Of a stretch of DNA of 64,000 bases, positions 4,839 to 61,224 are shown piece by piece. The position numbers and the translations under genes were made by a program. The number at the start of each line of letters is the position of its first letter. Position 1 is the first letter of the stretch. This DNA comes from Candidatus Pacearchaeota archaeon. Lineage in GTDB: Archaea; Nanobdellota; Nanobdellia; Pacearchaeales; GW2011-AR1. The notes below the pieces were generated by a model. The model searched no databases and was not told the origin of the DNA. It saw only the letters and a program-made list of their open reading frames with translations. The stretch covers positions 18,063 to 82,062 of the forward strand of contig JAGVWZ010000016.1 of the NCBI GenBank assembly GCA_018304045.1, given 5' to 3'.

Positions 4839-5147
4839 TCATTTTCTTTTAATTTTCTTCTTTTCCTTTAATTTATTCTCTCCATTAAGTTCTTTCACAA
4901 GTTCATCAACATCAATTCCATGAACCAATGCACCTTGTTCCAATGTTTCAAATCCAGCCATACCGCAGCCAATGCAATGCATTCCTTTTTCAAATAATAT
5001 CATGATTGCATCTGGATTTTTTTCAATTATTTCATTGAATGTCATTTCTTTAGTTATCTTTATTTTCAAATCTTTCTTTGTTTCTGAAGATTTGGAAAGA
5101 CTGAAATTGTTAGTTTCAGACAATTTCTTTATTTTTTGTTTTTTCAT
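4839..5147 (-). CDS. DUF1858-like redox-disulfide domain protein
   Basis: C-terminal segment EIIEKNPDAIMILFEKGMHCIGCGMAGFETLEQGALVHGIDVDEL matches the DUF1858 (hybrid-cluster-protein-associated) CxxC pattern; sits between iscS and iscU. Confidence 0.5.
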   Translation of the reverse strand: MKKQKIKKLSETNNFSLSKSSETKKDLKIKITKEMTFNEIIEKNPDAIMILFEKGMHCIGCGMAGFETLEQGALVHGIDVDELVKELNGENKLKEKKKIKRK

Positions 5148-5256: not shown

Positions 5257-6438
5257 TTATTGTATCGGACTCATTTTTCTTAATTTTTCAACAATTCCAG
5301 GTAATATTCCTAAAACATAATCTATTTCTTCTTCTGTATTAAATTTTCCAAGACTTAGTCTTATTGAACTATTTATTTGCATATGAGAAAGTCCAATAGC
5401 AGTAAGCACATGGCTTTTTTCAAGTGAATGTGACGCACAAGCACTTCCTGTTGAACTACTTATTCCATAGGAATCTAAAAATCCACCAATTGCTTCACCT
5501 TCAATATTATTGAATCTTATGTTAATATTATTTGCAAGTCTTTTACTTCCACTAGGCCCATTTAAATTTGTATTCGGAATTTTTAAGATTCCTTCAATTA
5601 ATTTATCTCTTAATCTTCCAATTTCCTTTACATCTTTGTGACCCATAAGTTTCACAGCCTTTGCAAAACCAACAATTCCAGAAACATTTTCAGTTGAACT
5701 TCTTAATTTGAATTCATGTCCACCTCCATGAAATAAAGGAGTTATTTTGTTCTTAACATCCTTGTTTATATACAATCCCCCAACTCCCTTAGGCCCATGA
5801 ATTTTATGAGAATTCAAAGTTAAAAAATCAAGATTCATTTTATTAACGTCAATGTCTATCTTAGTATAGCTTTGGCAAGCATCTGAATGAAAATAAACAT
5901 TATTTTTCTTACAAATTTTTCCAATTGCTTCTAAGTTCTGTATTGTTCCTATTTCATTATTGCCATGTATAACACTTACAACAAGAGTTTTATCAGTAAT
6001 AGCTTCTTCTAGTTCTTTTAAATCAATAAAACCTTCAGAATCAACATTAAGATAAGTTATTTTAGCTCCAAGTGTTTCAAGCCATTTACAACTATTCAAA
6101 ATACAATCATGTTCTATTTTTGTAGTAATAATATGATTCTTTTCTTTTCCAAAAGAAAAAAACAATCCTTTTAATGTAAAATTATTGCTTTCTGTTCCTC
6201 CAGAAGTGAATATTATTTCTTCTCTTTTTGCACCAATTGATTTTGCAATTACATCCCTAGAATCTTCAAGAGCTCTTTTTGCTTCCTGCCCAATAAAATG
6301 CTGAGAGCTAGCATTTCCAAATTTTTCAGTAAAATAAGGCAACATCTCTTTAACAACTTCATCATCAACCCTAGTTGTTGCAGCATTATCTAGGTAAACT
6401 TTTTCAACTTTTGTTTTGTTTTTATTAAATATTCCCAT
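5257..6438 (-). CDS. iscS: cysteine desulfurase (class V aminotransferase, IscS/NifS type)
   Basis: Conserved desulfurase blocks (SHKIHGPKGVGGLYI) and the active-site loop SSGSACAS. Confidence 0.9.
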   Translation of the reverse strand: MGIFNKNKTKVEKVYLDNAATTRVDDEVVKEMLPYFTEKFGNASSQHFIGQEAKRALEDSRDVIAKSIGAKREEIIFTSGGTESNNFTLKGLFFSFGKEKNHIITTKIEHDCILNSCKWLETLGAKITYLNVDSEGFIDLKELEEAITDKTLVVSVIHGNNEIGTIQNLEAIGKICKKNNVYFHSDACQSYTKIDIDVNKMNLDFLTLNSHKIHGPKGVGGLYINKDVKNKITPLFHGGGHEFKLRSSTENVSGIVGFAKAVKLMGHKDVKEIGRLRDKLIEGILKIPNTNLNGPSGSKRLANNINIRFNNIEGEAIGGFLDSYGISSSTGSACASHSLEKSHVLTAIGLSHMQINSSIRLSLGKFNTEEEIDYVLGILPGIVEKLRKMSPIQ

Positions 6439-12138: not shown

Positions 12139-12666
12139 CTATTTTTTCCAATCATGAGTTAACTTGCTACAGGTATCAATTGTTAAGGACTCATTATCCT
12201 CTTGAATTTCATTTAAAAATTCTTTTCTAGCTTCTGAAATCTTCTTTTTAACATTCATCTCATCTCCATTACCTTCATCCCCACTAAATTCCGACTCATC
12301 ACCCCTATTATTATTATTATTATTATTTCGATTATTCCAACTTACACCACCATAACTTTTTCCATTATTAAACCCATTCTGTTCACTATGGCTCTCTCCT
12401 TCACCCACACTTCCAAACACCTCCACAGTTCCACATTCTCTAGTCTTAAACCTATCTCGAAGAATGTTTGCATTTGCCGCCCCATCAATCTCATTAGAGT
12501 CCTCTCGGATATATTTGCTAATATAGTCAATTTCCTTGATAGAATTAGGTAGTTTAGAAATTGGCTTATTAGAGAATCCTTCTTTGGAAGTAATCTTATT
12601 CGAAGGATTGTCTATAAATCTATAATCTTCAGAAGAATTTTCATCAACCTCAATTGCCATAGGCAA
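12139..12666 (-). CDS. hypothetical low-complexity protein (Asn-run)
   Basis: ORF contains NNRNNNNNNNRGDE, encoded by an (ATT/AAT)n tract at ~12306..12332. Confidence 0.3.
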   Translation of the reverse strand: MPMAIEVDENSSEDYRFIDNPSNKITSKEGFSNKPISKLPNSIKEIDYISKYIREDSNEIDGAANANILRDRFKTRECGTVEVFGSVGEGESHSEQNGFNNGKSYGGVSWNNRNNNNNNNRGDESEFSGDEGNGDEMNVKKKISEARKEFLNEIQEDNESLTIDTCSKLTHDWKK

Positions 12667-12704
12667 TTAAGCAGAGCATAGTTTATAAAATAATATATAA
12701 TACA

Positions 12705-12714
12705 CGCCCGCGCC
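12705..12714. repeat. att-like copy of the tRNA-Asp 3' end (cgcccgcgcc), distal boundary of cassette array
   Basis: 10-bp all-GC match to the tRNA-Asp acceptor or T-stem 3' strand in ~30% GC DNA; one of four copies spaced 0.1-1.2 kb apart. Confidence 0.6.
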
Positions 12715-12745
12715 AAACTCTCGATAAAAGTGTCTCAGTTGAGCC

Positions 12746-13792
12746 TCACAAGAATATATTCCAGTAACTTTCAATCATCTCACTAGCAATAAACTGTACT
12801 AATTCAAAATAATCTTCAATTTTTACCTTAAACAAATCAGAATTATCAGCTTTTCTCATAGCTTTAAGATATTTTTCACGATTTTTATTTCTAATGACTA
12901 TTGGCGGATAATTATTTTTAATTAAAATATAATTTAGTAACATTCTTCCAGTTCTTCCATTTCCATCCATAAACGGATGGATTTTTTCAAACTTATGCTG
13001 AAAAATAATAGCTAAAACTAATGGATGAAGCTTTTCCTTATTTTCTTTATCTGAAGATTGCTTTGCAATCGAAGATTTGAGAACTCGGTTCTCATTATAC
13101 CATTTTAATAATAAATCCATATCTGTTTTTACATAAGGGGCAGGTGTTGATTTAAAATTAGCTTTTATAACCCTAACATCTTGAGTTCTATAGCCTATTC
13201 TTTTATCAATATTATCTAAAAGATTTTTGTGAATATTTATTATAAAATCATGAGTAATTTCTTCTTTACTTTCAATTACTTCAGAAAATACTTTTTCTGT
13301 ATTCTGCAAATCATAAATTTCTCTAAGTGTTCTGTTTTTAGGTGTTTTTCCATCTTCCAATAGTTTTTTTGCTTCTGCAAGTTTTATTGTATTTCCTTCA
13401 ATTGAAGTAGTATTATAAGCAAATTCTATTAGAAAATTCTTTAGAATTTCCCTGCGAGTCAAAGAATCATGTTTTTGAAATTCTCTTAAATAATGAAGTT
13501 TGCAAGCCTCAACTTCACTAAGTTTTTCTCCTAAAAATAAATCTTGTTTTAATTTTAACTTTTTGACTTCATCAACAAGCCTATTTGATTCTAGAAAATT
13601 ATGAATAGTCTTATATGCCTTTCTTATTTCATTTTTATATTTTGGAAGGTTTTCAAGTGATTTTTTTACATCTTCAGTATTACTTCCAAGATATGCTAAA
13701 TCTTTAGTAACAAGCTTATCTTCTTTTTTTTCAGATGCCCTTAAGTAATAATATTCTTTCTTTCCAATAGTTTTCTTATAGATATATGCCAT
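12746..13792 (-). CDS. Fic/DOC family protein (cassette gene)
   Basis: Fic motif HPFMDGNGRTGR. Confidence 0.85.
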   Translation of the reverse strand: MAYIYKKTIGKKEYYYLRASEKKEDKLVTKDLAYLGSNTEDVKKSLENLPKYKNEIRKAYKTIHNFLESNRLVDEVKKLKLKQDLFLGEKLSEVEACKLHYLREFQKHDSLTRREILKNFLIEFAYNTTSIEGNTIKLAEAKKLLEDGKTPKNRTLREIYDLQNTEKVFSEVIESKEEITHDFIINIHKNLLDNIDKRIGYRTQDVRVIKANFKSTPAPYVKTDMDLLLKWYNENRVLKSSIAKQSSDKENKEKLHPLVLAIIFQHKFEKIHPFMDGNGRTGRMLLNYILIKNNYPPIVIRNKNREKYLKAMRKADNSDLFKVKIEDYFELVQFIASEMIESYWNIFL

Positions 13793-13861
13793 AGGAAATC
13801 TAAGAAAGCCTAGTTTATAAATCTTACCCTTTATTTATAAAATTATATTATAAAGGGTAAA

Positions 13862-13871
13862 CGCCCGCGCC
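13862..13871. repeat. att-like copy of the tRNA-Asp 3' end (cgcccgcgcc)
   Basis: Same core as 12705, 15795 and the tRNA itself; followed by the conserved cassette-end motif caaaaggacttttagtaaat. Confidence 0.6.
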
Positions 13872-13960
13872 GAACAAAAGGACTTTTAGTAAATATTAAT
13901 AAAATTGGAAAGAACTTTTGTGAATAGAACTCTGGATAAAAGTGTCTCAGTTAGAAGAAA

Positions 13961-14209
13961 TTATTGTTCTTTTTTATGATATAAATTTAATATGATTACT
14001 CTTTCCTCATGTTTTATATAGCAATAAGAAAGTCTAAATGGAGATACATATAATTCTCTTGTTCCTCTTCGGTCATACATCATAGGTTTTCCAATTTCAG
14101 GATTATTTTTTATTTTTTCAATTTGTTTGATTACTCTTTCCTTTAAATTATTATCCTTAATTTTTGAAAATGTTTCTCTAAATTTATCATCAAAATTAAC
14201 TCTTGTCAT
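13961..14209 (-). CDS. RelE/ParE-family type II toxin (cassette gene)
   Basis: 82 aa; close paralog of 39767..40015 (shared KIKDNNLKERV...NPEIGKPM...GTRELYVSPFRLSY); RelE-like size and basic character. Confidence 0.6.
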   Translation of the reverse strand: MTRVNFDDKFRETFSKIKDNNLKERVIKQIEKIKNNPEIGKPMMYDRRGTRELYVSPFRLSYCYIKHEERVIILNLYHKKEQ

Positions 14210-14250
14210 TTTAACCTCTTTTTTATTATAATCTGAGAAATAGAATTAAA

Positions 14251-14520
14251 TCACCATTTCTTCATTTCTTCTATAAAATTGTCAAATCCCATTTCTTTAA
14301 ATTCCCCTCTTTCATACCTTTTATATGCCTCTTCAGTTCTTCTTGCAAATTCTAAATCTTCCTCAAGAGTTTTACTAAATTCATCAGCTTTTTTTAATAT
14401 TATCTGACTATCATTTTTAATTATAACAAGTTTATCTCCTTCTTTCAAATCTCCTCTCATCTCTAAAGGTATAACTATTTGTCCTTTAGAGCTTATTCTT
14501 GTTATTGATATATTTTCCAT
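14251..14520 (-). CDS. AbrB/MazE/SpoVT-type antitoxin
   Basis: Swapped-hairpin motif ISSKGQIVIPLEMR; immediately upstream of the toxin on the same strand; C-terminus similar to 39579..39773. Confidence 0.6.
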   Translation of the reverse strand: MENISITRISSKGQIVIPLEMRGDLKEGDKLVIIKNDSQIILKKADEFSKTLEEDLEFARRTEEAYKRYERGEFKEMGFDNFIEEMKKW

Positions 14521-14654
14521 GTTAAATTTTTAAATTTAATCAGACAGAAAATTCTTAATTTTCTGTATATGTAAGATTAGTCTTACTAGTATATAAATAT
14601 TTCTATGAACAAATCTTACTCTCTACAAATGATATTTGTATTGTAAGGGGTAAC

Positions 14655-14664
14655 CGCCCATGCC
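14655..14664. repeat. degenerate att-like copy (cgcccatgcc) of the tRNA-Asp 3' end
   Basis: gggtaaCCGCCCATGCCAga versus gggtaaACGCCCGCGCCGaa at 13856; it separates the toxin-antitoxin cassette from the Fic-2 cassette. Confidence 0.45.
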
Positions 14665-14812
14665 AGACACCCATCATCTGGGTATATCTTAGTGTTTTTA
14701 TAAGAATTACTTAATCTATTGAATTTATAAGAGCTGTCGAGATAAAATATATCTATTTGACTTACCCCTACATAATAGGAAGATTTAAATATGTGTAGGG
14801 GTATAAATAATT

Positions 14813-15763
14813 ATGGTAAGTGTTAAATATAAAACTATTAATGGAAAGAAATATCTTTATGCAGAACATTCTTTTAGATTGCCTAATGGCAAAATCAAAA
14901 AAATATCTAAATTAATACAAAACAAAGAAGAAGAAAAGAATAGGGGGATAAAAGATTATTTCTTAAAAAAACAAATGGAATCTTATCAGGATTATGCATT
15001 AGAAACCTATAAACCAGATAGTATACTTAATGAAGAACAGATAAAAAAATTAGAACAGATAAAAGTAGAATATAAAGAAATAATGAAATCTTTTACTAAA
15101 AATCAAATAAAAGACATTTTAGACAGATTTACTGTTAATTTTACTTATGAATCTAATGCTATTGAAGGCAATTCTTTAACTCTAAAGGATGTAACTCTTA
15201 TACTTGGGGAAAATGTTGTTCCAAAAAACAAGGATTTAAGAGAAGTTTATGAAACAAGAAATACAAGAGAAGCCCATGAATTATTATTCAAAAATAAAGT
15301 AAAAATAAATATCAAAGATATAATTAATATTCACTCTATTCTTGTAAAGGATACAGGTGTTCAATTAGGATTTAAGAAACTTCCAAATTATCTTTTAATG
15401 AGGGATTTAAAAACAACTCCTCCTGAAAAAGTTGAAGAAGAAATGAACAAACTAATCCTTTGGTATAAAGCGAGTAAAAATAAAATTCATCCATTAAGAC
15501 TCGTGAGCGAATTTCATGCAAGATTTGAAAGTATCCATCCATTTGATGATGGAAATGGAAGAACTGGAAGAATTTTGTTAAATGCTATACTTTTTGAACA
15601 TAATTATCCTCCTTTAATTATAAGAAAAACAGCAAGAATTGCATATTTTTCTTCATTAGAAGCTTTTGATAAAGGATATAAAAATAAACTAGAAAGATTT
15701 TTGCTCGATAAGATAAAAGATACCTTTGAAAAATTTTTTAAGATTTATGTTAAATATCTTTAA
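14813..15763 (+). CDS. Fic/DOC family protein (cassette gene)
   Basis: Fic motif HPFDDGNGRTGR. Confidence 0.85.
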   Translation: MVSVKYKTINGKKYLYAEHSFRLPNGKIKKISKLIQNKEEEKNRGIKDYFLKKQMESYQDYALETYKPDSILNEEQIKKLEQIKVEYKEIMKSFTKNQIKDILDRFTVNFTYESNAIEGNSLTLKDVTLILGENVVPKNKDLREVYETRNTREAHELLFKNKVKINIKDIINIHSILVKDTGVQLGFKKLPNYLLMRDLKTTPPEKVEEEMNKLILWYKASKNKIHPLRLVSEFHARFESIHPFDDGNGRTGRILLNAILFEHNYPPLIIRKTARIAYFSSLEAFDKGYKNKLERFLLDKIKDTFEKFFKIYVKYL

Positions 15764-15794
15764 ATATAAGGACCAGAATAGGATATAACAAATC

Positions 15795-15804
15795 CGCCCG
15801 CGCC
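15795..15804. repeat. att-like copy of the tRNA-Asp 3' end (cgcccgcgcc)
   Basis: Exact 10-bp copy 108 bp from the tRNA 3' end. Confidence 0.6.
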
Positions 15805-15911
15805 TGTTTAAATTCCCATTTCTTTATTATTAATCTTACCAAAATGATAATTTAAAACTCAAACATCGGGTTCCCCGAGTTCATAGTCTCGGTTAAAATT
15901 ATAAGAGAAAG

Positions 15912-15983
15912 CGCCCGCGCCGAGACTCGAACTCGGGTTGCATCCGTGACAGGGATGAGTGCTAACCACTACACTACGCGGGC
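15912..15983 (-). tRNA. tRNA-Asp (anticodon GTC)
   Basis: Manual fold: acceptor GCCCGCG/CGCGGGC; anticodon stem CATCC/GGATG with loop CTGTCAC; T-arm CCGAG-TTCGAGT-CTCGG; discriminator G; no encoded CCA. Confidence 0.8.
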
Positions 15984-16087
15984 AAGTTTAAGCTAAGTCA
16001 AATATCTGCTTTAATAGCTAGATTGAACTTGACCTAGGCATGATTATTTTACAATTTTAAGATTTTTAAACCTTAGTATTTATAGAA

Positions 16088-16750: not shown

Positions 16751-16890
16751 GGCTCTGTCCGGAATAAATTAATCTAGTCTTATATTGAATAATAAATCTC
16801 TTCATTTTTCTTTCACGCCCTCAATTATTAGGGGCGCGTAAATAAAAATAAGTTTAATTCTAATAAGTATAAAGAACTCCGGACAAAGCC
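16751..16890. mobile_element. MITE-like element, copy 1 (~140 bp, 12-bp perfect TIR GCTCTGTCCGGA, internal hairpin)
   Basis: Terminal inverted repeats ggctctgtccgga ... tccggacaaagcc; flanked by a direct repeat ccaaaatta (possible target-site duplication); second copy at 25043..25192. Confidence 0.55.
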
Positions 16891-18700: not shown

Positions 18701-18925
18701 ATGTCAGAAATTAAACCACATCTTTTAAGATGTGGATGTTTACTTGTTTTAATTTCTGAGCCATCAAAATATTTTAAATATTTTGTGGCGCCTAAAACTT
18801 CTGAAAGTTTTAGTGCGCATCCTAAAAACAAGTGCCTGTCACAAACCACACATGTCAGAAATCTTTTATGGATTTCTGAGCACTATTGAGAATTAAAAAT
18901 TCTCAAAGCTTTAGTGTGTTAAGTA
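18701..18925. ncRNA. copy B of the nrdJ-leader element family (orphan copy between convergent genes)
   Basis: atgtcagaaattaaaccacatcttttaagatgtgg...gttttaatttctga ... cctaaaaacaagtgcctgtcacaaaccacaca aligns with 2901..3016; outer stem shows compensatory changes (ggaattaaaac/gttttaattcc versus agaaattaaac/gttttaatttct); extra 9-bp perfect hairpin ctaaaacttctgaaagttttag. Confidence 0.4.
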
Positions 18926-21018: not shown

Positions 21019-21075
21019 AGTTAATTAAGGATTTTGAACATTATAAACTAATCACTTTGCTCTAGAAGGGATAAA

Positions 21076-21090
21076 TCCCAGGGAGAGAGC
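21076..21090. repeat. att-like copy of the tRNA-Tyr 3' end (tcccagggagagagc)
   Basis: Matches tRNA-Tyr 3' terminal sequence tccccagggagagag (22260..22274); distal boundary of the array. Confidence 0.55.
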
Positions 21091-21172: not shown

Positions 21173-21487
21173 ATGTATAGAGTTTTTCGTTCTGGAAAAT
21201 ATGAAAAGAGGCTAAATAAATTAGATAAATCCGAATCAGATAGAGTTGTTGATTTTGAACAATCCTTAAAAATTGAGCCTTATAATGGAAAACCTTTAGG
21301 ATATGAATTTTTTAGGGAGAAAAAATTCAATGGAAATAGAATTATATTCTTAATTTATGAACAACATAAATGTGTTTTCCTTGTAGTTATAACTAATAAG
21401 AAAATACAACAACAAGAAATTAATCTGATAAAAGCAAATCTTGATGTTTACAAAGAGGAAATAGAAAAAAGAATAAAAGAACTTTAA
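21173..21487 (+). CDS. RelE/ParE-superfamily toxin-like protein (cassette gene)
   Basis: 104 aa; GKPLGYEFFREKKFNGNRIIFLIYEQHKCVFLVVI resembles the RelE/StbE core. Confidence 0.45.
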   Translation: MYRVFRSGKYEKRLNKLDKSESDRVVDFEQSLKIEPYNGKPLGYEFFREKKFNGNRIIFLIYEQHKCVFLVVITNKKIQQQEINLIKANLDVYKEEIEKRIKEL

Positions 21488-21702
21488 ATTTCTTTTATAT
21501 TTCCCTGAATTATATCTTTTATACCTTCCGCTATCTCTTTAATAAGTTCTCCATCTACTTCTTTACATTTTATTAATTCTTCATATTCTTCTCTTGAAAT
21601 AGTTATTGTCTCTTCCATGATAATTTTAGTATTTTTAGGTTTAAATAATTGTTGGTTATAGCTAAATAATATCCCCTGGGAGAGAGCAAAACAAAAGTTC
21701 AT
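21484..21702 (-). CDS. small hypothetical protein (probable start at MEETITISREEYEEL, ~44 aa)
   Basis: Convergent with and 4 bp overlapping the toxin-like gene; helical acidic peptide. Confidence 0.25.
   Translation of the reverse strand: MNFCFALSQGILFSYNQQLFKPKNTKIIMEETITISREEYEELIKCKEVDGELIKEIAEGIKDIIQGNIKEI
21672..21687. repeat. att-like copy of the tRNA-Tyr 3' end (tcccctgggagagagc)
   Basis: Second copy separating two cassettes. Confidence 0.55.
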
Positions 21703-21713
21703 TCCCTCTGATT

Positions 21714-22196
21714 TTAATCGGATTTATAAAAATCATAAACCTGTTCATCAGCCCATACTCTTTCAGAGTCAGGAACTTCTGTATCCACAGCCCATTTTCT
21801 TTTGTTTTTGGGTGTTGCATTAAGAACATTATTCATAAATTCTAATTTTCTTTCTTTAACTGTTTTTTTATCAGTATCTTCTAATCTCCATCCATTTAAT
21901 ACAAATTCTACAAACCTCATGTGGTCTGGATGTCTCATATAGGCTAACATTTCATCTTCTGAGTCAAATGTGATGTTCATTCCAACATCAAATCTATATA
22001 CTTGAACTGCCCTTCCAGAATCATATCTTGGAGCAACTAAAAAATCTCTAACTCCAGGTATTTGAGCTAGATATCTATTTGCATTATCAATAATTTGCTG
22101 TACAGCTTGAGGATTATTAGGATTAGTTTGATATAAGACTATGTGGCTAAATCCATTACCTAATATTTTTTCTAAATCTACATTCTCAGTTACCAT
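21714..22196 (-). CDS. hypothetical protein, possible Dabb/stress-responsive alpha-beta barrel domain (cassette gene)
   Basis: N-terminal FSHIVLYQT...resembles Dabb starts; otherwise unassigned. Confidence 0.3.
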   Translation of the reverse strand: MVTENVDLEKILGNGFSHIVLYQTNPNNPQAVQQIIDNANRYLAQIPGVRDFLVAPRYDSGRAVQVYRFDVGMNITFDSEDEMLAYMRHPDHMRFVEFVLNGWRLEDTDKKTVKERKLEFMNNVLNATPKNKRKWAVDTEVPDSERVWADEQVYDFYKSD

Positions 22197-22259: not shown

Positions 22260-22331
22260 AATATAAACATCCCCAGGGAGAGAGTCGAACTCCCGTCATC
22301 CGGTCTACAGCCGAAGGTAATAACCGTTATA
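22260..22331 (-). tRNA. tRNA-Tyr (anticodon GTA), archaeal-type C1:G72
   Basis: Manual fold: acceptor CCCCAGG/CCTGGGG; anticodon stem TTCGG/CCGGA with loop CTGTAGA; T-arm GGGAG-TTCGACT-CTCTC; discriminator A. Confidence 0.7.
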
Positions 22332-22476
22332 CGACCTGGGGATCTGATTTTGCCATATATTCCTCCATTCCTCTGAAATCAGGTCCACAGGGAATTGGGA
22401 TAAACATACTAAAAAGTTACTATATTTAAAGATTTGTTTTGAATAAGTTTAAATAATATATATTTTACTGCAGTTT

Positions 22477-25042: not shown

Positions 25043-25192
25043 TGCTCTGTCCGGAATTAAATCTCCTAACTTCGAATATTCTAAAAAATCACTTATTTTT
25101 CTTTATCCCCCTCATTAATTAGGGGGGAGTAAATAAAAATAAGACAATAATAGATTAACTTTTATTAAAAATAAAGGACTCCGGACAGAGCA
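25043..25192. mobile_element. MITE-like element, copy 2
   Basis: TIR tgctctgtccgga ... tccggacagagca (perfect 13 bp); internal hairpin tccccctcattaattaggggggag corresponds to cgccctcaattattaggggcg in copy 1 (compensatory G:C to C:G swaps); conserved core ttttctttNNcNccctcaattattaggggNgNgtaaataaaaataag. Confidence 0.55.
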
Positions 25193-38603: not shown

Positions 38604-38756
38604 GACTAAATCAGGATTTTTAAGAATTTAAACTTTGCTGCCCAGTTTTAATATGGATTAATAAATCTTGCCATACTACTCTATGGTTAAAATGACCTAA
38701 CCTAAACATAAAATCTTTTAAACCCCTTTTTATTGTTATGTTATATTCAAAATATT

Positions 38757-38882
38757 GCGCCGCTAGTTTAGTGGTAGAACATATCGTTGCCAATAAAGAA
38801 ATTAGATTAATTTCTAATTTTTCCTTTCATAAGGAAAGAAAGCAAAAACGATAGGATCCGAGTCCGATTCTCGGGTGGCGCA
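38757..38882 (+). tRNA. tRNA-Gly (anticodon GCC) with ~55-nt intron after position 37
   Basis: Exon 1 GCGCCGC-TA-GTTT-AGTGGTA-GAAC-A-TATCG-TTGCCA; intron aataaagaaatt...gcaaaaa (approximately 38793..38847); exon 2 (A)CGATA-GGAT-CCGAG-TCCGATT-CTCGG-GTGGCGC-A; acceptor 7 bp with one G:U. Confidence 0.7.
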
Positions 38883-39007
38883 TTCATATTTGCAAGGCAA
38901 ATATGTCATCCGGGATGTCGTAAAGAATTCAAACAGTGATAAGGTCTGATTCCGAGCAAAAGGACTTTTAGTAAATTTGATAGAATAAGAAAGCACTTTT
39001 GCGAGTA

Positions 39008-39018
39008 GGGTGGCACAT
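39008..39018. repeat. att-like copy of the tRNA-Gly 3' end (gggtggcacat)
   Basis: tRNA ends cgggtggcgca; the copy is preceded by the conserved cassette-end motif. Confidence 0.55.
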
Positions 39019-39081
39019 TTTATTATTTTCTAGTAGTAACAAAATAGGAAGATTTAAAAATGTTAAAGAATAGTTAATTTT

Positions 39082-39537
39082 ATGGGATATGATTATAAAA
39101 GTTTAGAAGATTTTAAAATGGGTTTTCCATTTCTTCGTAGCTGTAGCAAACTTGGAGATTTTAAACTTTTTATTATAGGTGAAGAAAAAAGTGAAAGATT
39201 AAGGGCTTGTGAATTTACCCAAGGAGTTCTTGAGAGAATGTTGGATGAAGCTAAAAGCTCTGGAGATATTAGAGACTATGAAGTAAAAATCATTGATCTT
39301 GCAACTTCTACTAAAGCTACTCGAATTGATCCATTATATCCAGAAGAATGGGGAAGAATAGGAAATAAAGATGGTTTAGTTTTTCTTCCAATATTTCATA
39401 ATACAGATGGTGAACCATGCTTACCTCAAGTTGCATTTGATGAGCATTTACCGGCGATTTTTTCAGTTTCACAAAAAGGATATAATGCAGTAGTAAATCG
39501 TTCTAAAAGAGATTGTTATGATACTGTAAGAGTTTAG
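39082..39537 (+). CDS. hypothetical protein (cassette gene)
   Basis: ORF only. Confidence 0.3.
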   Translation: MGYDYKSLEDFKMGFPFLRSCSKLGDFKLFIIGEEKSERLRACEFTQGVLERMLDEAKSSGDIRDYEVKIIDLATSTKATRIDPLYPEEWGRIGNKDGLVFLPIFHNTDGEPCLPQVAFDEHLPAIFSVSQKGYNAVVNRSKRDCYDTVRV

Positions 39538-39578
39538 TAAACCAAAAATTTTATAAATAATCATTTACTATAAACTAC

Positions 39579-39773
39579 ATGGAAACACAAACAATAGACA
39601 ATTTGTCAAAAGAAGTAATGCTGTTAAAAAAAGAATTTGCTAAAATGAAAGAATTCATGGAAGAAGATCTTGAATTTGCAAAAAGAACAGAAGAAGCATG
39701 GCAGGAAATTGATGAAGGAAAATGCACTTGTATAAATTCTGAAGACTTTTTAAAAGAAATTAAAAAATGGTAG
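39579..39773 (+). CDS. antitoxin (C-terminally similar to 14251..14520)
   Basis: EEDLEFAKRTEEAWQE...FLKEIKKW versus EEDLEFARRTEEAYKR...FIEEMKKW; immediately precedes and overlaps the toxin gene. Confidence 0.5.
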   Translation: METQTIDNLSKEVMLLKKEFAKMKEFMEEDLEFAKRTEEAWQEIDEGKCTCINSEDFLKEIKKW

Positions 39774-40015
39774 AAATAATCTATGCAGATAGATTCAAAA
39801 GAACATTATCAAAAATTAAGGATAATAATCTTAAAGAGAGGGTAGCAAAACAAATTGCAAAGATTATTGAAAATCCTGAAATAGGCAAACCAATGAGTTA
39901 TAATAGAAAAGGGACAAGAGAACTTTATGTTTCACCATTTAGGCTATCTTATGCTTTTATCTCACATCAAAATACAATTTATTTTTTAGATTTGTATCAT
40001 AAGGATGAACAATAA
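39767..40015 (+). CDS. RelE/ParE-family toxin, paralog of 13961..14209
   Basis: ~70% identical to the tRNA-Asp-array toxin. Confidence 0.6.
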   Translation: MVEIIYADRFKRTLSKIKDNNLKERVAKQIAKIIENPEIGKPMSYNRKGTRELYVSPFRLSYAFISHQNTIYFLDLYHKDEQ

Positions 40016-40060
40016 AAGTTCAATTTCCCATATTGAAAATCGCATTTTGGGTGGGTACCC

Positions 40061-40072
40061 GGGTGGCGCATG
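40061..40072. repeat. att-like copy of the tRNA-Gly 3' end (gggtggcgcatg)
   Basis: Preceded by cccgggtgg as in the tRNA. Confidence 0.55.
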
Positions 40073-40109
40073 CTTTTTTTTATAGAAGAGAAATTAGGGA
40101 ATCGAACTT

Positions 40110-40820
40110 TTAACTTATTTCTATCCTTCTACAGGCTAAACATAAAACATCTTTATAAGCATCTTCTCCTACCAAAACTGCTGTAAAATCATATTCTGCT
40201 ATTTGATTACCAGAAATATTATTTGCAATAACCTGTCCTTTGGCAATATTATCAAAATTATTTATCAAGACATTCTCTTTAGATTTTTTTATTATATTAA
40301 AGACCTCAAATATCTCCATATCCTCATTAATCTTATTTTCAATGATATTTTTTATTAACAAGCTTGCTTCTTCTACATTTTCTTTCCTATTATGTGGACC
40401 TACTTCGATGCTTATGCCACAATCAACAAAATCTATTAATGCTTTTCCACTTGCAAAAAATTCAGGCATTATAACTAATTTTTTTAAACCCAATAGTTTT
40501 GCAAATTCTATTTTTTCATTATTTGGTTTTGTTATTATCCCAAACATAGGGCAGTTATTAGATGAAGAATGAATATCTATTATATAATAAAAATCTTTTA
40601 GTCTTTTAATCAGATTATAGGCCAGTTTTTCCTCATGATTCCCATCTATCTTTCCTGGAAAACATCGGTTTAAATCAGTATCTATAAATCTTTTATTCTC
40701 AATAAATGCTTTTTTATTTGAAAGAAAAAAAGGGAAGAAAGACTGGTTTTTACTAACTTCAAAGCCATATCTTTCATTCCCATGTAAACAACAAACAATT
40801 GCTAAATTTTTCATAGTCAC
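40110..40820 (-). CDS. succinylglutamate desuccinylase/aspartoacylase (AstE/AspA) family zinc hydrolase-like protein
   Basis: Conserved CCLHGNERYG (HGNE) motif and IIDIHSS block. Confidence 0.5.
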   Translation of the reverse strand: MTMKNLAIVCCLHGNERYGFEVSKNQSFFPFFLSNKKAFIENKRFIDTDLNRCFPGKIDGNHEEKLAYNLIKRLKDFYYIIDIHSSSNNCPMFGIITKPNNEKIEFAKLLGLKKLVIMPEFFASGKALIDFVDCGISIEVGPHNRKENVEEASLLIKNIIENKINEDMEIFEVFNIIKKSKENVLINNFDNIAKGQVIANNISGNQIAEYDFTAVLVGEDAYKDVLCLACRRIEIS

Positions 40821-40821
40821 G

Positions 40822-41289
40822 TTATAAGATACCTATTGCAAGAACCGCATCTCCCTTATCTAATGCCATTTTCAAATCTTGTTTAAAGAATCTACTTACT
40901 GAACAATGTTCTGGTTCTCTTCCATAGAAAAGTCCTCCATAATATCCTTTGACTACTCCATTAGAATCAGAATTACAATTAAGATAGACTGCAAACTCTT
41001 CTTGTAGAGTTCTAATTTGCCTAGGCATGCCACTCAATCCTGGAAATGTACTTTGGCAGTAATTCAACAATGCTTTATACATTCTTGGATTTTGAGTCCT
41101 TAAACATATTGCTCTTTCTCCATTGATTGCTTGATTTGTAATCTCTCTAAATATTCCCTTTCCTTGAATAGATGAATCTAGACAAATTCCTTCTACAATT
41201 AGAGAAGGAAATCCTGCAAAAGATCTTCTATTATAACTTGCCATTGCTTTGATTTCTCCATTTCTAAGAAGAAATACTCTTTCTGGCAA
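40822..41289 (-). CDS. GNAT-family N-acetyltransferase-like protein
   Basis: Motif A-like IVEGICLDSSIQGKGIF; adjacent to the AstE/AspA-like gene. Confidence 0.45.
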   Translation of the reverse strand: MPERVFLLRNGEIKAMASYNRRSFAGFPSLIVEGICLDSSIQGKGIFREITNQAINGERAICLRTQNPRMYKALLNYCQSTFPGLSGMPRQIRTLQEEFAVYLNCNSDSNGVVKGYYGGLFYGREPEHCSVSRFFKQDLKMALDKGDAVLAIGIL

Positions 41290-41764
41290 AGTTATATGAT
41301 TATAGATATCTTGAAAATCTAAATCCCTCCCAAATCCATTTCTTACAACACTTACAACTTGTTCTAAATCATCAGGATTTGAATCAAAATGCTTCTTAGG
41401 ATTTGTGATTTCTTCTATGTTGCCAAAGACAGCTAGAAGATTTAATTATTTTATTTACCATTTTACTCCTGACCTCCTTTCAGCCTTTTTCAGAAAGAAT
41501 TTCAAAATAAGAAAGATTAAATTAACAGGGCTATGCCCAGGGATATTGAATTAAAAATTTATTATATAGGGTTTTAACTAGGAAGAATATAATTTTATTG
41601 CCAGAGATAACCTCTAGATTGTATTGTCATATAAATTTGATTATTAATTGCTATTTAAATTTTCCTATTCAATTCCCTCCTTTAAAAAAGCAAAATCCCT
41701 GGCTTCTTGAGTATCTAACCTACCCAACCAAAAATTTTATATAGCTTACTTTCTAAGAATAAAT

Positions 41765-41926
41765 ATGGAAAACGAAGAATTAATTATAAGCAAATTAGAT
41801 GTATTAAAACAAGAAATTGACTTTATTAAAAAACATTTAATAGATGTAACTTTAACTCAAGATGATGTTAAATCTTTATGTGAAGCTGAAGAAGATTTAA
41901 AAAAAGGAAGAACAAAGAGGTTGTAA
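41765..41926 (+). CDS. 53-aa antitoxin-like protein upstream of RelE/ParE toxin
   Basis: MENEELIISKLDVLKQEIDFIKKHL...; stop 1 bp before the toxin start codon; below ORF-track cutoff. Confidence 0.45.
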   Translation: MENEELIISKLDVLKQEIDFIKKHLIDVTLTQDDVKSLCEAEEDLKKGRTKRL

Positions 41927-41927
41927 A

Positions 41928-42188
41928 ATGTATTTTGTAGAGCTATCAGTTAAAGCTCAAGATTTCTTAGAAAAAATTGATAAAGATACTAAAGATAGAA
42001 TAGAAAAAAGATTAAAAAATCTTGAAAGTAATCCTATTCCAAGCGATTCAAAATTTATTGGAAGAGATAATAATGAAATGGTTTTTAGATACAGGATTGG
42101 TAAATTCAGAGCTCTGTATAAAGTTAAAGAAGCTCAAAAGATAATTTTAGTCACTAAAATTGATAAAAGAGACAAAGTTTATGATTAA
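41928..42188 (+). CDS. RelE/ParE-family toxin
   Basis: 86 aa; FRYRIGKFRALYKV...IILVTKIDKRDKVY typical RelE/StbE C-terminal region. Confidence 0.6.
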   Translation: MYFVELSVKAQDFLEKIDKDTKDRIEKRLKNLESNPIPSDSKFIGRDNNEMVFRYRIGKFRALYKVKEAQKIILVTKIDKRDKVYD

Positions 42189-42304
42189 ACTAAATTCCTT
42201 ATAGTAAAACAATAAAATTTTGTGCAAACTGAACTTTTTTCTTGTTTACGAGCAAAAGGACTTTTAGCAAATTCGATGAAATAAGAAAGCACTTTTGCGA
42301 GTAG

Positions 42305-42315
42305 GGTGGCGCATG
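42305..42315. repeat. att-like copy of the tRNA-Gly 3' end (gggtggcgcat)
   Basis: Preceded by the conserved cassette-end motif (42253..42304). Confidence 0.55.
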
Positions 42316-42364
42316 TTTTACTGAACATTATATAGTCCTTAAACTAAAATGTGGTAGCCGAGAA

Positions 42365-42375
42365 GGGTAGCGCAT
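42365..42375. repeat. att-like copy of the tRNA-Gly 3' end (gggtagcgcat), last of the array
   Basis: 50 bp after the previous copy (empty cassette). Confidence 0.45.
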
Positions 42376-47070: not shown

Positions 47071-47231
47071 CTTTTATAAAAAGAAGTTATAAGGATTATT
47101 GTTCTAGATGAATCTCAAAAATATGGGCCCACGCGGCCCTAGAATCGCGGAGAGCTCGGTGTAAAAAATAAGAACCTTTTTGTATCCAAAAGAATAATAA
47201 TATTTATAAACTGTACAGTTTATTATATTGT

Positions 47232-48497
47232 ATGTACAAAGATAGATACATTAGAAGAAAAGGGGAATTTTTGGATAATAAGGATATTAATCCTAAAAAT
47301 AGGAAGGTTACTGAAAAGTTCTTTGAATTTGAAGAATACAAACTAAAGAGGAAGCAAGGATTAGCAGAGGTTGATGAAAAATCCTACAAAACACTTTATT
47401 TCTATGTTGGTAGATTGATTAATTTGAATAATTGGTTTAAGAATAAAGATTGGTCTAAATTAACTGAAGAAGAAATAAAAAAATTAATTGATGATTTAGA
47501 AGACGGAAAAATAACAACTCATAAAGGGACAAGATTTACAGACAGGAGTTTGTATTATCAAATGATAAAAGGAAAATTATTTGATTTAGTTGGTAAGAGT
47601 TTTATTGCAACACAAATCCTAAAAGAGTTCTCAATAAAAGGAAGAGAGTTTAGAGATGAAGTAAGATATATTGAAGAAGAGTCTTTTAGAAAAATTGTTG
47701 ATTGTGCTCCAAAGTCAGAACATAAGTGTTTGATGTGGTTAGCTTTTGATATAGGTGAGAATATTGGAACTCTCTTAGAATTGACTAGAGAAGATTTCCA
47801 AAGACAAATCAATCCAGACACTAATGAACCAGAATATTTAGTTATGCTAACTAAAGATAGGATTAAGAGGAGTAGAACTGCAAGAGGTGAAACTACCAAT
47901 CATCAGGAAACTGTAAAATATTTAGATATAATTCTTAGAAACCTAAAACCAGCATCACCAAAAACTTCCACTAGCCGGTATCGCAGGTCACTTAAAACTT
48001 TAAATGAACTACATCCAGAAAACAAACTATTCAAGTTTGGCCACAAAGCATCTGTAAAGTTTTTTGACAGAGCAGTTGTAAGAGCAGGAGTAAAATGTTT
48101 ACCTGGTGGTCAAAAAGTTACATGGAAAGATTTGAGAAGTTCTATGGCTTGTAATTTATTGAGAAAAGAGTGGTCCAGAGACGAGGTAAATGCTAGACTT
48201 GGACATAAGCCTTCTAGTCGTATCATAGATTCTTACATCAACTATCTTTCATTAGATAGAAGAAAACCACAAAAGAAAGTTTATGAAAGCAGTTTAAAAA
48301 AGATTGAAGCTGATTTTGAAAAACAAAAAGAAGTTTCAAAATTACAGGGATTAAAAATTGAAAATCTAAGAGAGGATATAAAACAAATCAAAACAGACTT
48401 TAAATTAGCAATGGAAAAACAAAGAAAACAATTAATTGAAATTGTTATGGAATTAAAGAAGGGACAAGTAAAACCTATTGTTGTTAAGAGTCATTAA
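47232..48497 (+). CDS. tyrosine recombinase/integrase
   Basis: C-terminal catalytic region with R...LGHKPSSRIIDSYINY (H-x-x-R, Y); preceded by GC-rich palindrome gggcccacgcggccc at 47124..47138. Confidence 0.65.
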   Translation: MYKDRYIRRKGEFLDNKDINPKNRKVTEKFFEFEEYKLKRKQGLAEVDEKSYKTLYFYVGRLINLNNWFKNKDWSKLTEEEIKKLIDDLEDGKITTHKGTRFTDRSLYYQMIKGKLFDLVGKSFIATQILKEFSIKGREFRDEVRYIEEESFRKIVDCAPKSEHKCLMWLAFDIGENIGTLLELTREDFQRQINPDTNEPEYLVMLTKDRIKRSRTARGETTNHQETVKYLDIILRNLKPASPKTSTSRYRRSLKTLNELHPENKLFKFGHKASVKFFDRAVVRAGVKCLPGGQKVTWKDLRSSMACNLLRKEWSRDEVNARLGHKPSSRIIDSYINYLSLDRRKPQKKVYESSLKKIEADFEKQKEVSKLQGLKIENLREDIKQIKTDFKLAMEKQRKQLIEIVMELKKGQVKPIVVKSH

Positions 48498-57423: not shown

Positions 57424-57549
57424 TTTTATAGTAAATCTTAAACTGGTTATTATTTATTAATTTCTATTATTAACTATTCAGTTTAACACTAAAAACCTTT
57501 AAAAGGCATAGGTTTATTATTATTTTAAGATTAATTAATAATCTTAAAT

Positions 57550-57620
57550 GGGCTATTAGGCTAGTGGCAAACCGATTCCTTTACACGGAATATTCACCAG
57601 TTCGATTCTGGTATGGCCCA
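57550..57620 (+). tRNA. tRNA-Val (anticodon TAC)
   Basis: Acceptor GGGCTAT/ATGGCCC (one G:U); anticodon stem ATTCC/GGAAT with loop TTTACAC; T-arm ACCAG-TTCGATT-CTGGT; discriminator A; D-stem imperfect. Confidence 0.6.
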
Positions 57621-58075
57621 TATAAATAAAATGAAGACCTCCATAAAAATACTTTTAATTGTAGTATATTTAATTGGTTTTACATTGTTATTACCTTTCT
57701 TTTTTAGTATGCTTGACAAACTTCCTGATTCTTATGCTTTGGGAGTTATCGCTGTCTTGATTATTGTTTTTATGTATTGTTTTATTCCATATAAAATCTG
57801 GAAGTTGAAAAAATGAGTTCATCAGTTTTATACACTAGAGGAATACCAATATTGATTGGGGTTATAATATCTTTTATACTCTATCTACTCTCACAATGGC
57901 TTTTGAACAGAAAAAAATGAGATTGTTTACACAAAAAATTCACTAGTTTGATTTTGACATAATTTCACATGTTTTTTTATAGATTTTTTGTTTTAGAAAA
58001 GTTTATAAGTTTACAATATGGAAAAATATATAGGGGTGAGAAGCACCTCAGGAGCTTATTCTGAGAAGATTTAAG

Positions 58076-61097: not shown

Positions 61098-61170
61098 ATA
61101 ATATACAAATAGATTCTAAACATTATTACTAAAAAAGGAACAAAAAGGTTCATATTGGTGTAAACGAGGT

Positions 61171-61224
61171 GGTTTGCCACTAGCCTAATCGCCCATTAGA
61201 TTATTATTCATAATCTTAAAATAA
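61171..61224 (-). pseudogene. inverted partial copy of tRNA-Val (promoter + positions 1-26, then divergent anticodon stem with the same TTTACAC loop)
   Basis: Reverse complement reads tattttaagattatgaataataatctaat-GGGCGATTAGGCTAGTGGCAAACC-ACCTCGTTTACACC, versus ttattttaagattaattaataatcttaaat-GGGCTATTAGGCTAGTGGCAAACC-GATTCCTTTACACGGAAT at 57521..57590. Confidence 0.45.

Follow-up and report, generated by a model that had tools for sequence, protein, structure and literature searches.

Tandem arrays behind tRNA genes

A 64,000-nt stretch of a Candidatus Pacearchaeota genome (contig JAGVWZ010000016.1; hereafter, the window) contains a tRNA-Asp(GTC) gene whose 3′ end is repeated in the downstream DNA, delimiting a tandem series of small gene units (array 1; Table 1). 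ARAGORN and Rfam both called the tRNA, and together with sequence matches they confirmed the arrangement proposed in an earlier sequence-only reading, namely a tRNA-Asp gene followed by four small cassettes bounded by copies of the tRNA end. Downstream of the gene, the 3′ end GGCGCGGGCG is found three more times exactly and once in degenerate form. On the plus strand, the 10-mer CGCCCGCGCC was found exactly at 12705, 13862 and 15795 and within tRNA-Asp at 15912; it is complementary to the final two bases of the T-stem, the 3′ strand of the acceptor and the discriminator base. Exact-match searches and reading of the sequence bore out the core positions given previously (15795, 14655 as the degenerate copy, 13862 and 12705), and the copies matched the tRNA end on alignment. 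Every copy is located 3′ of the tRNA and has the same orientation as the gene. Dinucleotide-preserving shuffles gave an expectation of 0.00 matches to the 10-mer, compared with the four observed, in agreement with the view that its recurrence is not due to chance.

Pfam assignments agreed with the cassette contents that had been read from the sequence (two Fic genes, one RelE/AbrB-type pair and one empty unit). Both Fic domains matched PF02661 (E = 2e-19 and 2.3e-20), and the translations hold HPFMDGNGRTGR and HPFDDGNGRTGR; the string HPFxDGNGR is present in both proteins, which satisfy the Fic/Doc family motif HxFx(D/E)GNGRxxR. More than 3000 homologues of Fic1 were found in DPANN archaea. 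Unit 3 contains an adjacent pair of small genes with MazE/AbrB and ParE/RelE family domains, a predicted type II toxin-antitoxin module. Behind tRNA-Asp in L007 and L049 (L-numbers label compared loci from related DNA) stands a unit made up of a spacer, a partial tRNA copy and a 57-nt element; unit 1 is homologous to it but decayed. The units have their own TATA-box promoters and occur in both orientations, with Fic2 opposite to the others; a putative inverted-repeat/TATA promoter of Fic2 was read at 14772-14808.

Arrays were present at three of the four tRNA genes in the window (Asp, Tyr and Gly). The tRNA-Tyr copies (array 2) were found by searching the window for copies of the ends of each tRNA. 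A GC-rich repeat, GGGTGGCGCAT, at 39008, 40061, 42304 and 42365 pointed to tRNA-Gly(GCC), the anchor of array 3, which extends over 38884-42375 and holds three to four units. This intron-containing gene was missed by default ARAGORN and by Rfam, which at gathering thresholds identified only three tRNAs in the whole window. The open reading frame (ORF) pair in unit 2 of array 2 had no Pfam match; its size, its arrangement and its 33% identity to a homologous pair at a tRNA-Asp-derived site in L007 suggest a toxin-antitoxin pair. In array 3, the first ParE toxin (39767-40015) is a paralogue of the array 1 toxin (13961-14209), and the T-arm-like flank in the empty unit had a p value of about 0.001.

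Table 1. Features of the three tRNA-anchored arrays in the window (J1 to J4, copies of the tRNA-Asp 3′ end; aa, amino acids).
Feature	Position	Strand	Details
tRNA-Asp(GTC)	15911-15983	minus	Anchor of array 1; ARAGORN; Rfam RF00005, 63.7 bits; no encoded CCA
Array 1, unit 1	15805-15910	minus	'Empty', 106 bp, no ORF
J1	15795-15804	minus	Exact; GGCGCGGGCG on tRNA strand
Array 1, unit 2	14666-15794		Carries Fic2
Fic2	14813-15763	plus	316 aa; HPFDDGNGR; Pfam PF02661, E = 2.3e-20; orientation opposite to tRNA
J2	14655-14664	minus	Degenerate copy, CGCCCATGCC, 8/10 match
Array 1, unit 3	13874-14654		Carries MazE/AbrB antitoxin and ParE/RelE toxin
MazE/AbrB-type antitoxin	14251-14520	minus	89 aa; Pfam PF04014
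ParE/RelE-superfamily toxin	13961-14209	minus	82 aa; Pfam PF05016
25-mer unit end	13928-13952	minus	AACTGAGACACTTTTATCCAGAGTT (tRNA strand)
57-nt element, MITE-like (miniature inverted-repeat transposable element)	13871-13924	plus	Between 25-mer and J3; flanked by CGAA/TGAA
J3	13862-13873	minus	12 nt, CGCCCGCGCCGA
Inverted repeat	13823-13861	minus	TTACCCTTTA..TAAAGGGTAA; directly after J3, before Fic1 TATA box; kept before Fic1 homologues in every context examined
Array 1, unit 4	12715-13861		Carries Fic1
Fic1	12746-13792	minus	348 aa; HPFMDGNGR; Pfam PF02661
J4	12705-12714	minus	Exact; last boundary, then promoter of conserved flanking gene 12139-12660
tRNA-Tyr(GTA)	22269-22342	minus	Anchor of array 2; ARAGORN, Rfam
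Array 2, unit 1: Dabb (stress-responsive A/B barrel) protein	21714-22196	minus	160 aa; Pfam PF07876
tRNA-Tyr 3′-end copy	21671-21686	minus	15/16; ATCCCCtGGGAGAGAG on plus strand
Array 2, unit 2: cargo	21173-21621		104-aa RelE-like ORF 21173-21487 (plus), convergent with 45-aa ORF 21484-21621 (minus)
tRNA-Tyr 3′-end copy	21075-21089	minus	15 nt, one base deleted relative to last 16 nt
tRNA-Gly(GCC)	38756-38883	plus	Anchor of array 3; 55-nt canonical intron at 37/38; intron-aware ARAGORN (aragorn -i)
Array 3, 'empty' unit	38884-39018	plus	Hairpin, T-arm-like partial tRNA copy, 57-nt element 38953-39005, end copy
tRNA-Gly end copy	39008-39018	plus	GGGTGGCaCAT
Array 3, unit cargo	39082-40015	plus	151-aa ORF, 64-aa antitoxin-like ORF, ParE toxin 39767-40015 (PF05016)
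tRNA-Gly 3′-end copy	40060-40071	plus	CGGGTGGCGCAT
Array 3, unit cargo	40110-42188		Aspartoacylase-like ORF 40110-40820 (minus); 155-aa ORF 40822-41289 (minus); 53-aa ORF with ParE-family toxin 41765-42188 (plus), PF05016 at 41928-42188
57-nt element	42249-42301	plus	Followed by end copy on the same strand
tRNA-Gly 3′-end copy	42304-42314		
tRNA-Gly end copy	42365-42375	plus	Further degenerate copy

Frequency and direction of the copies

The window was pooled with non-redundant low-GC DPANN loci, giving 33 tRNA loci with ~128 kb of downstream and 121 kb of upstream sequence, and a copy was defined as a match to the last 13 nt of the tRNA that had no more than one mismatch or an exact stretch of ≥10 nt. 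Seventeen 3′-end copies were found downstream and none upstream, and 10 of the 33 tRNAs had at least one. Control queries (the first 13 nt of the tRNA and the reversed 3′ end) gave no copies in either direction.

Exact copies of Fic1 were present on 14 independently assembled contigs from several samples of the Rifle aquifer metagenomes, and all of them carried the same array. The nearest genomes were bins of Pacearchaeota/Woesearchaeota (DPANN). In one Rifle sample, the array formed a separate contig of 3287 bp (L005), extending from nucleotide 1 of tRNA-Asp to 8 nt past the last core. A contig with these limits indicates that assembly breaks at the edges of the array, probably because the tRNA and the core are common to co-occurring species.

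Variation among related loci

Orthologous sites were recognised by the flanking gene past the last core (12139-12660) and by the DUF7670, DUF5652 and M10/CARDB genes upstream of the tRNA. In line with the sequence-only reading, unit content varied between relatives, with boundaries at the copies. L026 carries tRNA-Asp, a 93-aa membrane ORF, TCGGCGCGGGCGT, a Fic1 gene (91% identical), TCGGCGCGGGCGTT and the flanking gene; it has neither Fic2 nor a toxin-antitoxin unit, and its tRNA-Tyr site is empty. At L046, tRNA-Asp is followed by MazE-ParE, a 25-mer, TCGGtGCGGGCGG and then MarC and VTT genes as in the window. The order at L039 is tRNA-Asp, a GNAT gene, a core and the flanking gene, and that at L034 is tRNA-Asp, two ORFs, Fic1 between two decayed cores and the flanking gene. 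A 108-aa small membrane ORF and a core follow tRNA-Asp at L033, and an SNF2 helicase occupies the site at L044. The tRNA has been lost from L007, where decayed cores are still found around a RelE-like pair. In a scan of genome contigs for the RecJ-like gene, the neighbourhood was kept only in L007 (one of 18 loci), the remaining loci being uninformative for tRNA-Asp. The second apparent core in L036, situated within a helicase ORF, was regarded as a chance match.

Pairwise alignments (blastn) located breakpoints at the copies. The window from 13874 to 12746 matched L026 7918-8999 at 88.5% identity over 1131 bp, starting exactly at J3, and the window from 14606 to 13927 matched L046 2943-3637 at 86%, ending where the L046 core stands. 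Furthermore, the 49 bp adjacent to J2 (14659 to 14611) were 94% identical to the junction upstream of Fic1 in L026. Thus, the presence and absence of units differ between the window and L026, L034, L039, L046 and L033, with breakpoints at the copies. The tRNA-Asp gene itself is 100% identical in L026, L039 and L046 despite the divergence of these genomes. In one respect, the outcome was less favourable to the sequence-only reading: Fic1 homologues were also found away from any tRNA (L027, L028, L031 and L122), which partly bears on its refuting case of the same genes occurring without the copies.

Fine structure of the junctions

The boundary had originally been described as the 10-mer. This core is real, but the repeated boundary is longer, with a variant flank and with a 25-mer and a 57-nt element abutting the copies. 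Most internal Asp copies read (G)TTCGGCGCGGGCG(T), compared with TCTCGGCGCGGGCG in the tRNA itself, and their common variant (TTCGG) differs from the TCTCGG of the tRNA. A shared variant of this kind is expected of an attachment site carried by an element and not of a fresh duplication of the target. The length of the repeat ranged from 10 to 17 nt across copies, and its left edge varied between tRNA positions 60 and 64. The end copies extend 1-3 nt past the discriminator base and have no CCA; therefore, DNA was their template rather than mature tRNA. Priming by a mature tRNA, in the manner of retro-elements, was ruled out on the same grounds and by the shared orientation of copies and gene. 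The cores of the window and of L026 are perfect and those of L034 and L007 have decayed by GC-to-AT changes, which fits junctions differing in age or activity.

The 25-mer AACTGAGACACTTTTATCCAGAGTT is found again at 12716-12740, and it also follows the L046 toxin-antitoxin unit and the Fic1 gene of L027. As AACTGAGACAYTTTTATC(S)AGAGTT, it closes several distinct units beside a core (the Fic1 and toxin-antitoxin units of the window, the toxin-antitoxin unit of L046 and Fic1 in L027), and a related motif is found in L034. The 57-nt element has 9-bp terminal inverted repeats, CAAAAGGAC/GTCCTTTTG (..CTTTTG), and flanking CGAG repeats. In addition to the three copies in the window (13871-13924, 38953-39005 and 42249-42301), it occurs at about 3565-3620 in L007 and in L035 (78 nt after tRNA-Tyr), and every copy abuts a tRNA-end copy. 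Its left flank is T-arm-like (p about 0.001-0.009) directly behind tRNA-Gly in the window, tRNA-Asp in L007 and L049 and tRNA-Tyr in L035; at these sites, the element is thus embedded in a more extended partial copy of the tRNA, with the T-loop part on one side and the acceptor part on the other. As L046 has no such element between the 25-mer and the core, the window copy is a secondary insertion. The element showed no significant folding relative to shuffled sequence (z between -1.1 and +0.1), and no box motifs were seen on reading and no Rfam match was obtained; it was accordingly rejected as an attC-like hairpin or a C/D-box RNA. A general T-arm similarity to the left of every core was likewise discarded, being significant only for the units with the 57-nt element and for L046.

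Two other repeats were observed in the window. A GC-rich inverted repeat, GCTCTGTCCGGA...TCCGGACAGAGC, with arms ~130 bp apart, occurs at 16752-16885, between the DUF7670 and DUF5652 genes near tRNA-Asp, and at 25043-25192, and could be a small structured element or MITE. An exact 23-nt direct repeat, CATCCTAAAAACAAGTGCCTGTC, is found at 2966-2988 and 18818-18840, 16 kb apart.

Recurrence at other tRNAs

In the finished genome of GW2011_AR20 (CP010426.1; L119), an intron-containing tRNA-Leu(CAA) is immediately followed by a Fic1 homologue, and the tRNA-Leu end copies TGTCTCCCACA and TGTCTCCCACAC bound the Fic1 unit and the next unit, which has two ORFs. In L011 (577-742), from another, Woesearchaeota bin, a 13-nt 3′-end copy lies 82 nt downstream of tRNA-Gly(CCC), giving an 'empty' unit like that of the window. 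Altogether, the end-copy architecture recurs at five different tRNAs.

All tRNA-linked Fic1 units start 0-2 nt past the core with TTACCCYTTA, an arm of the inverted repeat that ends at the TATA box. The same repeat precedes Fic1 homologues without a tRNA (L027, L028, L031, L122 and L127), and it is therefore probably an operator or promoter. Its candidacy as a recombination arm was unsupported, given that it accompanies Fic1 at the first four of these loci, where no tRNA is present. At L127, a Fic1 homologue in a defence-island context is flanked by ~35-nt direct repeats, GCTCGCCCYTCGGGCTCGCTCCCCGC, at about 4860-4960 and 6010-6080; these are GC-rich and hairpin-like and do not represent a tRNA end.

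Recombinases and candidate parent elements

ORF lists and Pfam searches revealed no recombinase within or adjoining any of the three arrays; the earlier remark that no integrase lies nearby was correct, and the two recombinases it listed for the window, a tyrosine integrase at 47232 and an IS6-like transposase, were both recovered. The integrase gene (421 aa; 47232-48497, plus strand) gave the sole PF00589 match in the window (23 bits, below the cutoff) and is separated from the nearest array by more than 4 kb. The family of this integrase comprised 483 matches with 55-65% identity across Pacearchaeota and Nanoarchaeota. In L052 (6885-8221) and L053 (2420-3789), the family member directly follows a tRNA-Val(TAC) 5′ half ending in the anticodon loop; Prim-Pol, D5_N/DUF5906 helicase and resolvase genes come after it in L052. 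The family belongs to an integrated plasmid- or virus-like element with a tRNA target different from those of the arrays. The 47232 integrase is thus unlikely to be the recombinase of the arrays.

An inverted copy of a tRNA-Val 5′ half including the anticodon loop, GGGCGATTAGGCTAGTGGCAAACCACCTCGTTTACAC, is present at 61160-61196 (minus strand), 3.5 kb from an intact tRNA-Val (57549-57621, plus strand), and a 14-nt copy of the tRNA-Val upstream flank lies at 61211-61224. The inverted half may be the scar of an integration or inversion by an element targeting tRNA-Val. Directly upstream of the integrase gene, a GC-rich inverted repeat, GGGCCcacgcGGCCC, occurs at 47124-47165; it contains no recognisable part of a tRNA, and Rfam gave no match over 44-50 kb at E values up to 5. 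The IS6-like DDE transposase (PF13610; 34680-35615, minus strand) adjoins no array and is the only DDE transposase in the window. The IS6 family generates 8-bp target duplications.

IMG/VR was queried with four features of the arrays. The 25-mer gave one chance match in a coding region, and the tRNA-Asp end gave only high-GC chance matches. The single Fic1 protein had no match, an alignment of Fic1 proteins retrieved only relatives of ≤33% identity in unrelated viruses, and the 57-nt element had no match; no parent virus or plasmid emerged from these queries.

Origin of the arrays

With moderate confidence, we interpret the arrays as the product of serial site-specific integration, i.e., the accretion in tandem of miniature elements that have no integrase and whose cargo is addiction or defence genes. 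According to this model, the 3′ ends of DPANN tRNA genes would serve as attachment sites, into which small DNA units would be inserted successively by site-specific recombination. Each insertion would keep the tRNA intact and place a second core (a copy of the final 10-16 nt of this tRNA) at the distal boundary of the insert, and repeated insertion or replacement at any copy would produce a series of tRNA, unit, core, unit and core. The units measure 0.1-2.2 kb and comprise their own promoter and one gene or one toxin-antitoxin pair. The observed cargo includes Fic, ParE/RelE with antitoxin and Dabb proteins and, in relatives, GNAT, small membrane proteins and an SNF2 helicase. As no unit has an integrase, the units would act like cis-mobilizable remnants or satellites; the recombinase might have been lost, might be located elsewhere in the genome or might be supplied by a transient element. 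An enzyme of the tyrosine-recombinase type presumably made the junctions, and the units may still be able to move. The addictive nature of the cargo (toxin-antitoxin and Fic) could explain its persistence under strong deletion pressure. Accretion is favoured because the pattern is the one classically produced when DNA integrates site-specifically at a tRNA 3′ end and the site is used again: the tRNA is intact, the repeats are downstream only and variable in length, the internal copies share a variant not found in the tRNA, trailer bases are present without CCA and units are gained and lost at the copies. The sequence-only reading had offered two possibilities; serial integration at a tRNA attB gained support from the downstream-only copies, the turnover of content and the other tRNAs, whereas an integron array did not stand.

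Several results weigh against this interpretation. None of ~15 distinct units contained an integrase or a fragment of one, the sole tyrosine recombinase of the window is linked to another target (the tRNA-Val anticodon loop), and no related element was recovered from IMG/VR with the four queries. The Fic1 unit, with the same left end, stands behind both tRNA-Asp and tRNA-Leu and is bounded each time by the local tRNA end, and the 57-nt element lies within partial copies of the Asp, Gly and Tyr tRNAs; a sequence-specific attP × attB model needs extra steps for units at several tRNAs. Moreover, exchanges do not all run from core to core: comparison of L026 7516-7931 with L039 6406-6953 (tRNA strand) showed that the ends of the first unit were kept (first ~58 bp, 88% identical; last ~87 bp, 79% identical) with the ORF swapped (93-aa membrane protein vs. 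137-aa GNAT). The window toxin-antitoxin unit lies within a Fic1-type frame that is broken at the TATA box. Finally, the array showed no variation across the 14 contigs of the source population.

Some of these points would be accommodated by an integron-like capture platform, in which one chromosomal recombinase inserts and excises units in trans and recognises tRNA 3′ ends as a class (roughly positions 61-73), with units that have generic end frames and never possessed an integrase. Consistent with this idea, no unit carries an integrase, the arrays occur at five tRNAs with unrelated cores, and the Fic1 unit (Asp and Leu) and the 57-nt element (Asp, Gly and Tyr) are accompanied by the local core each time. 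Units with different ORFs also have end pieces in common (the 25-mer, the L026/L039 frames and the Fic1-type frame around MazE-ParE), and the window and L026 have perfect cores in spite of diverged flanks. However, no candidate recombinase is linked to the arrays, and no structured attC-like site was found, the 57-nt element folding like shuffled sequence. Moreover, the cores decay in L034 and L007 and hence are not universally maintained, the Fic1 inverted repeat is also found without a tRNA and is probably a promoter or operator, and the variable left edge of the repeat does not indicate a fixed cut position. We consider such a platform rather unlikely. If it existed, it would be a functional counterpart of the integron operating on other sites and general to DPANN archaea, and its class-recognising recombinase would account for finding the Fic unit and the 57-nt element at more than one tRNA, each time next to a duplicate of the local end. 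The ORF-only replacement within conserved frames (L026 vs. L039) and the chimeric frame around the window toxin-antitoxin unit could instead reflect an old scar reshuffled by homologous or illegitimate recombination with no current site-specific recombination, the tRNA and the promoter/terminator frames serving as homology arms, as in 'minimal mobile elements'. The invariant tRNA-Asp in diverged L026, L039 and L046 would be an ideal homology anchor, and the lack of variation in the source population is compatible with this process. Reshuffling fails to explain the two to five tRNA-end copies, their downstream-only placement and their presence at five tRNAs, and several breakpoints lie exactly at cores; we therefore judge it improbable as the sole origin. 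These results suggest that homologous recombination in conserved frames is at best an additional process acting on arrays made otherwise.

Duplication of the target by transposition received even less credence. Staggered cuts by a transposase or casposase-like enzyme at the tRNA 3′ end, followed by repair, would duplicate 10-16 bp, and comparable duplications are known for casposons at the 3′ ends of tRNA or elongation factor 2 (EF-2) genes and for CRISPR repeats. The flanking repeat does match the local tRNA, whichever it is, even for homologous units, and tandem casposons with a common target-site duplication have been described (PMC6563490). Nevertheless, the repeat length varies (10-17 nt), L127 has flanking repeats of 35 nt, and the TTCGG variant of the internal Asp copies is not the sequence of the tRNA itself. 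Terminal inverted repeats were absent from the unit ends (junction sequences; none among the listed repeat pairs of array 1), no Cas1 or transposase was found in or beside the arrays, and the sole DDE transposase is the IS6-like one described above. Transposition is thus very unlikely. Chance matches or an assembly artefact, which the short cores (10 nt) might suggest, can practically be dismissed given the expectation from shuffles (0.00), the 17 downstream copies against none in every control, the recovery of the array on at least 14 independently assembled contigs from several samples and the arrays in a finished genome.

Comparison with known systems

Tandem accretion as favoured here has precedents. 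In streptococci, accretion and integrase-less cis-mobilizable elements (CIMEs) are known at tRNA 3′ ends in systems involving ICEs (integrative and conjugative elements) and IMEs (integrative and mobilizable elements); like the units of the window, CIMEs have no integration genes and are stacked in tandem through a re-used attachment site (PMC5704250). They differ in measuring from kb to tens of kb and in being recognisably decayed ICEs or IMEs found beside intact ones, whereas the units of the window are 0.1-2.2 kb in size, carry a single gene, have no intact parent that could be found and occur at several tRNAs per genome in a DPANN host. Tycheposon islands similarly comprise tandem elements separated by partial tRNAs, with scattered partial tRNAs as remnants (bioRxiv 10.1101/2020.12.28.424599; Hackl et al.). 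They share with the present arrays a streamlined genome and variable islands by tRNA genes in which elements lie side by side with a partial tRNA between them. In contrast, tycheposons have tyrosine or serine recombinases, replication modules and ~40-nt attachment sites, and the arrays have no recombinase, cores of 10-16 nt and a cargo that is mostly toxin-antitoxin or Fic; a recombinase and replication module beside the tRNA were absent from the arrays in Pfam searches.

CcrAB and CcrC, which act on staphylococcal chromosome cassettes (SCC), are serine recombinases. These cassettes form defence-rich arrays with repeated attachment sites at the 3′ end of a conserved gene (rlmH in staphylococci), and tandem SCC-like defence cassettes are mobilised by recombinases encoded by SCCmec (PMC11470126). 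SCC and SCCmec differ from the window arrays in their protein-coding anchor, their size of 20-70 kb and the SCCmec-encoded CcrAB/CcrC activity demonstrated experimentally. In Thaumarchaeota, integrated elements and tandem casposons resemble the arrays in being archaeal, in having tRNA genes as main targets and in forming arrays by re-use of short sites (as short as 8 bp; median, 17), but they encode integrases or Cas1 and span many kb (PMC6563490). With respect to casposons, neither Cas1 nor PolB was found among the ORFs, the unit ends have no terminal inverted repeats, and the repeat is 10-17 nt compared with a duplication of 14-15 bp.

The likeness to integron cassette arrays suggested by the sequence-only reading proved to be functional only. 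Integrons, including chromosomal superintegrons, also contain one-gene cassettes in tandem without recombinases of their own and frequently with toxin-antitoxin genes, and they have been reported in Archaea (PMC9668308). However, integrons have intI, attI and the cassette promoter Pc at the head of the array, a structured attC in each cassette and mostly promoterless cassettes. No intI or attI was found at the head of any array in the window; the boundaries are direct copies of tRNA 3′ ends with no attC-type palindrome, the 57-nt element being present at some junctions only; and units with their own TATA boxes in both orientations do not correspond to promoterless cassettes transcribed from Pc.

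Of the features that define tRNA-targeted accretion, direct repeats of the tRNA 3′ end flank the units on the 3′ side only, and unit presence and absence have breakpoints at the repeats, with ORF-only swaps as exceptions; no integrase was found in any unit, and the IMG/VR queries recovered no parent element. The arrays are therefore not an integron, a casposon array or a tycheposon, and they are like tandem accretion with CIME-like or SCC-like cassettes. Their distinctive features are the very small units, the complete absence of recombinases, the many tRNAs involved per small genome and the units common to different tRNAs. Literature searches identified no description of such arrays in DPANN archaea, in agreement with the original remark that no such arrays were known from this kind of archaeon; in bacteria and in other archaea, the phenomenon as such has been described.

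Implications for DPANN archaea

DPANN archaea are host-dependent and have genomes of ~1 Mb; gene gain and loss are poorly understood in these organisms, and few mobile elements are known. Our results indicate that each genome has several tRNA genes through which single-gene modules, mainly toxins (Fic and ParE/RelE), enter or recently entered, and that array content turns over between close relatives. The arrays explain the frequent short, fragmented contigs carrying Fic or toxin-antitoxin genes in these lineages. In practical terms, tRNA 3′-end copies provide a simple marker for variable islands in DPANN bins, for which intron-aware tRNA calling is needed. If the arrays are only remnants, they show addiction modules outlasting their carriers in streamlined genomes. 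If a recombinase is supplied in trans, the arrays would offer ultra-small cells a compact means of gene exchange, and they would be a source of archaeal attachment sites that are short and well defined.

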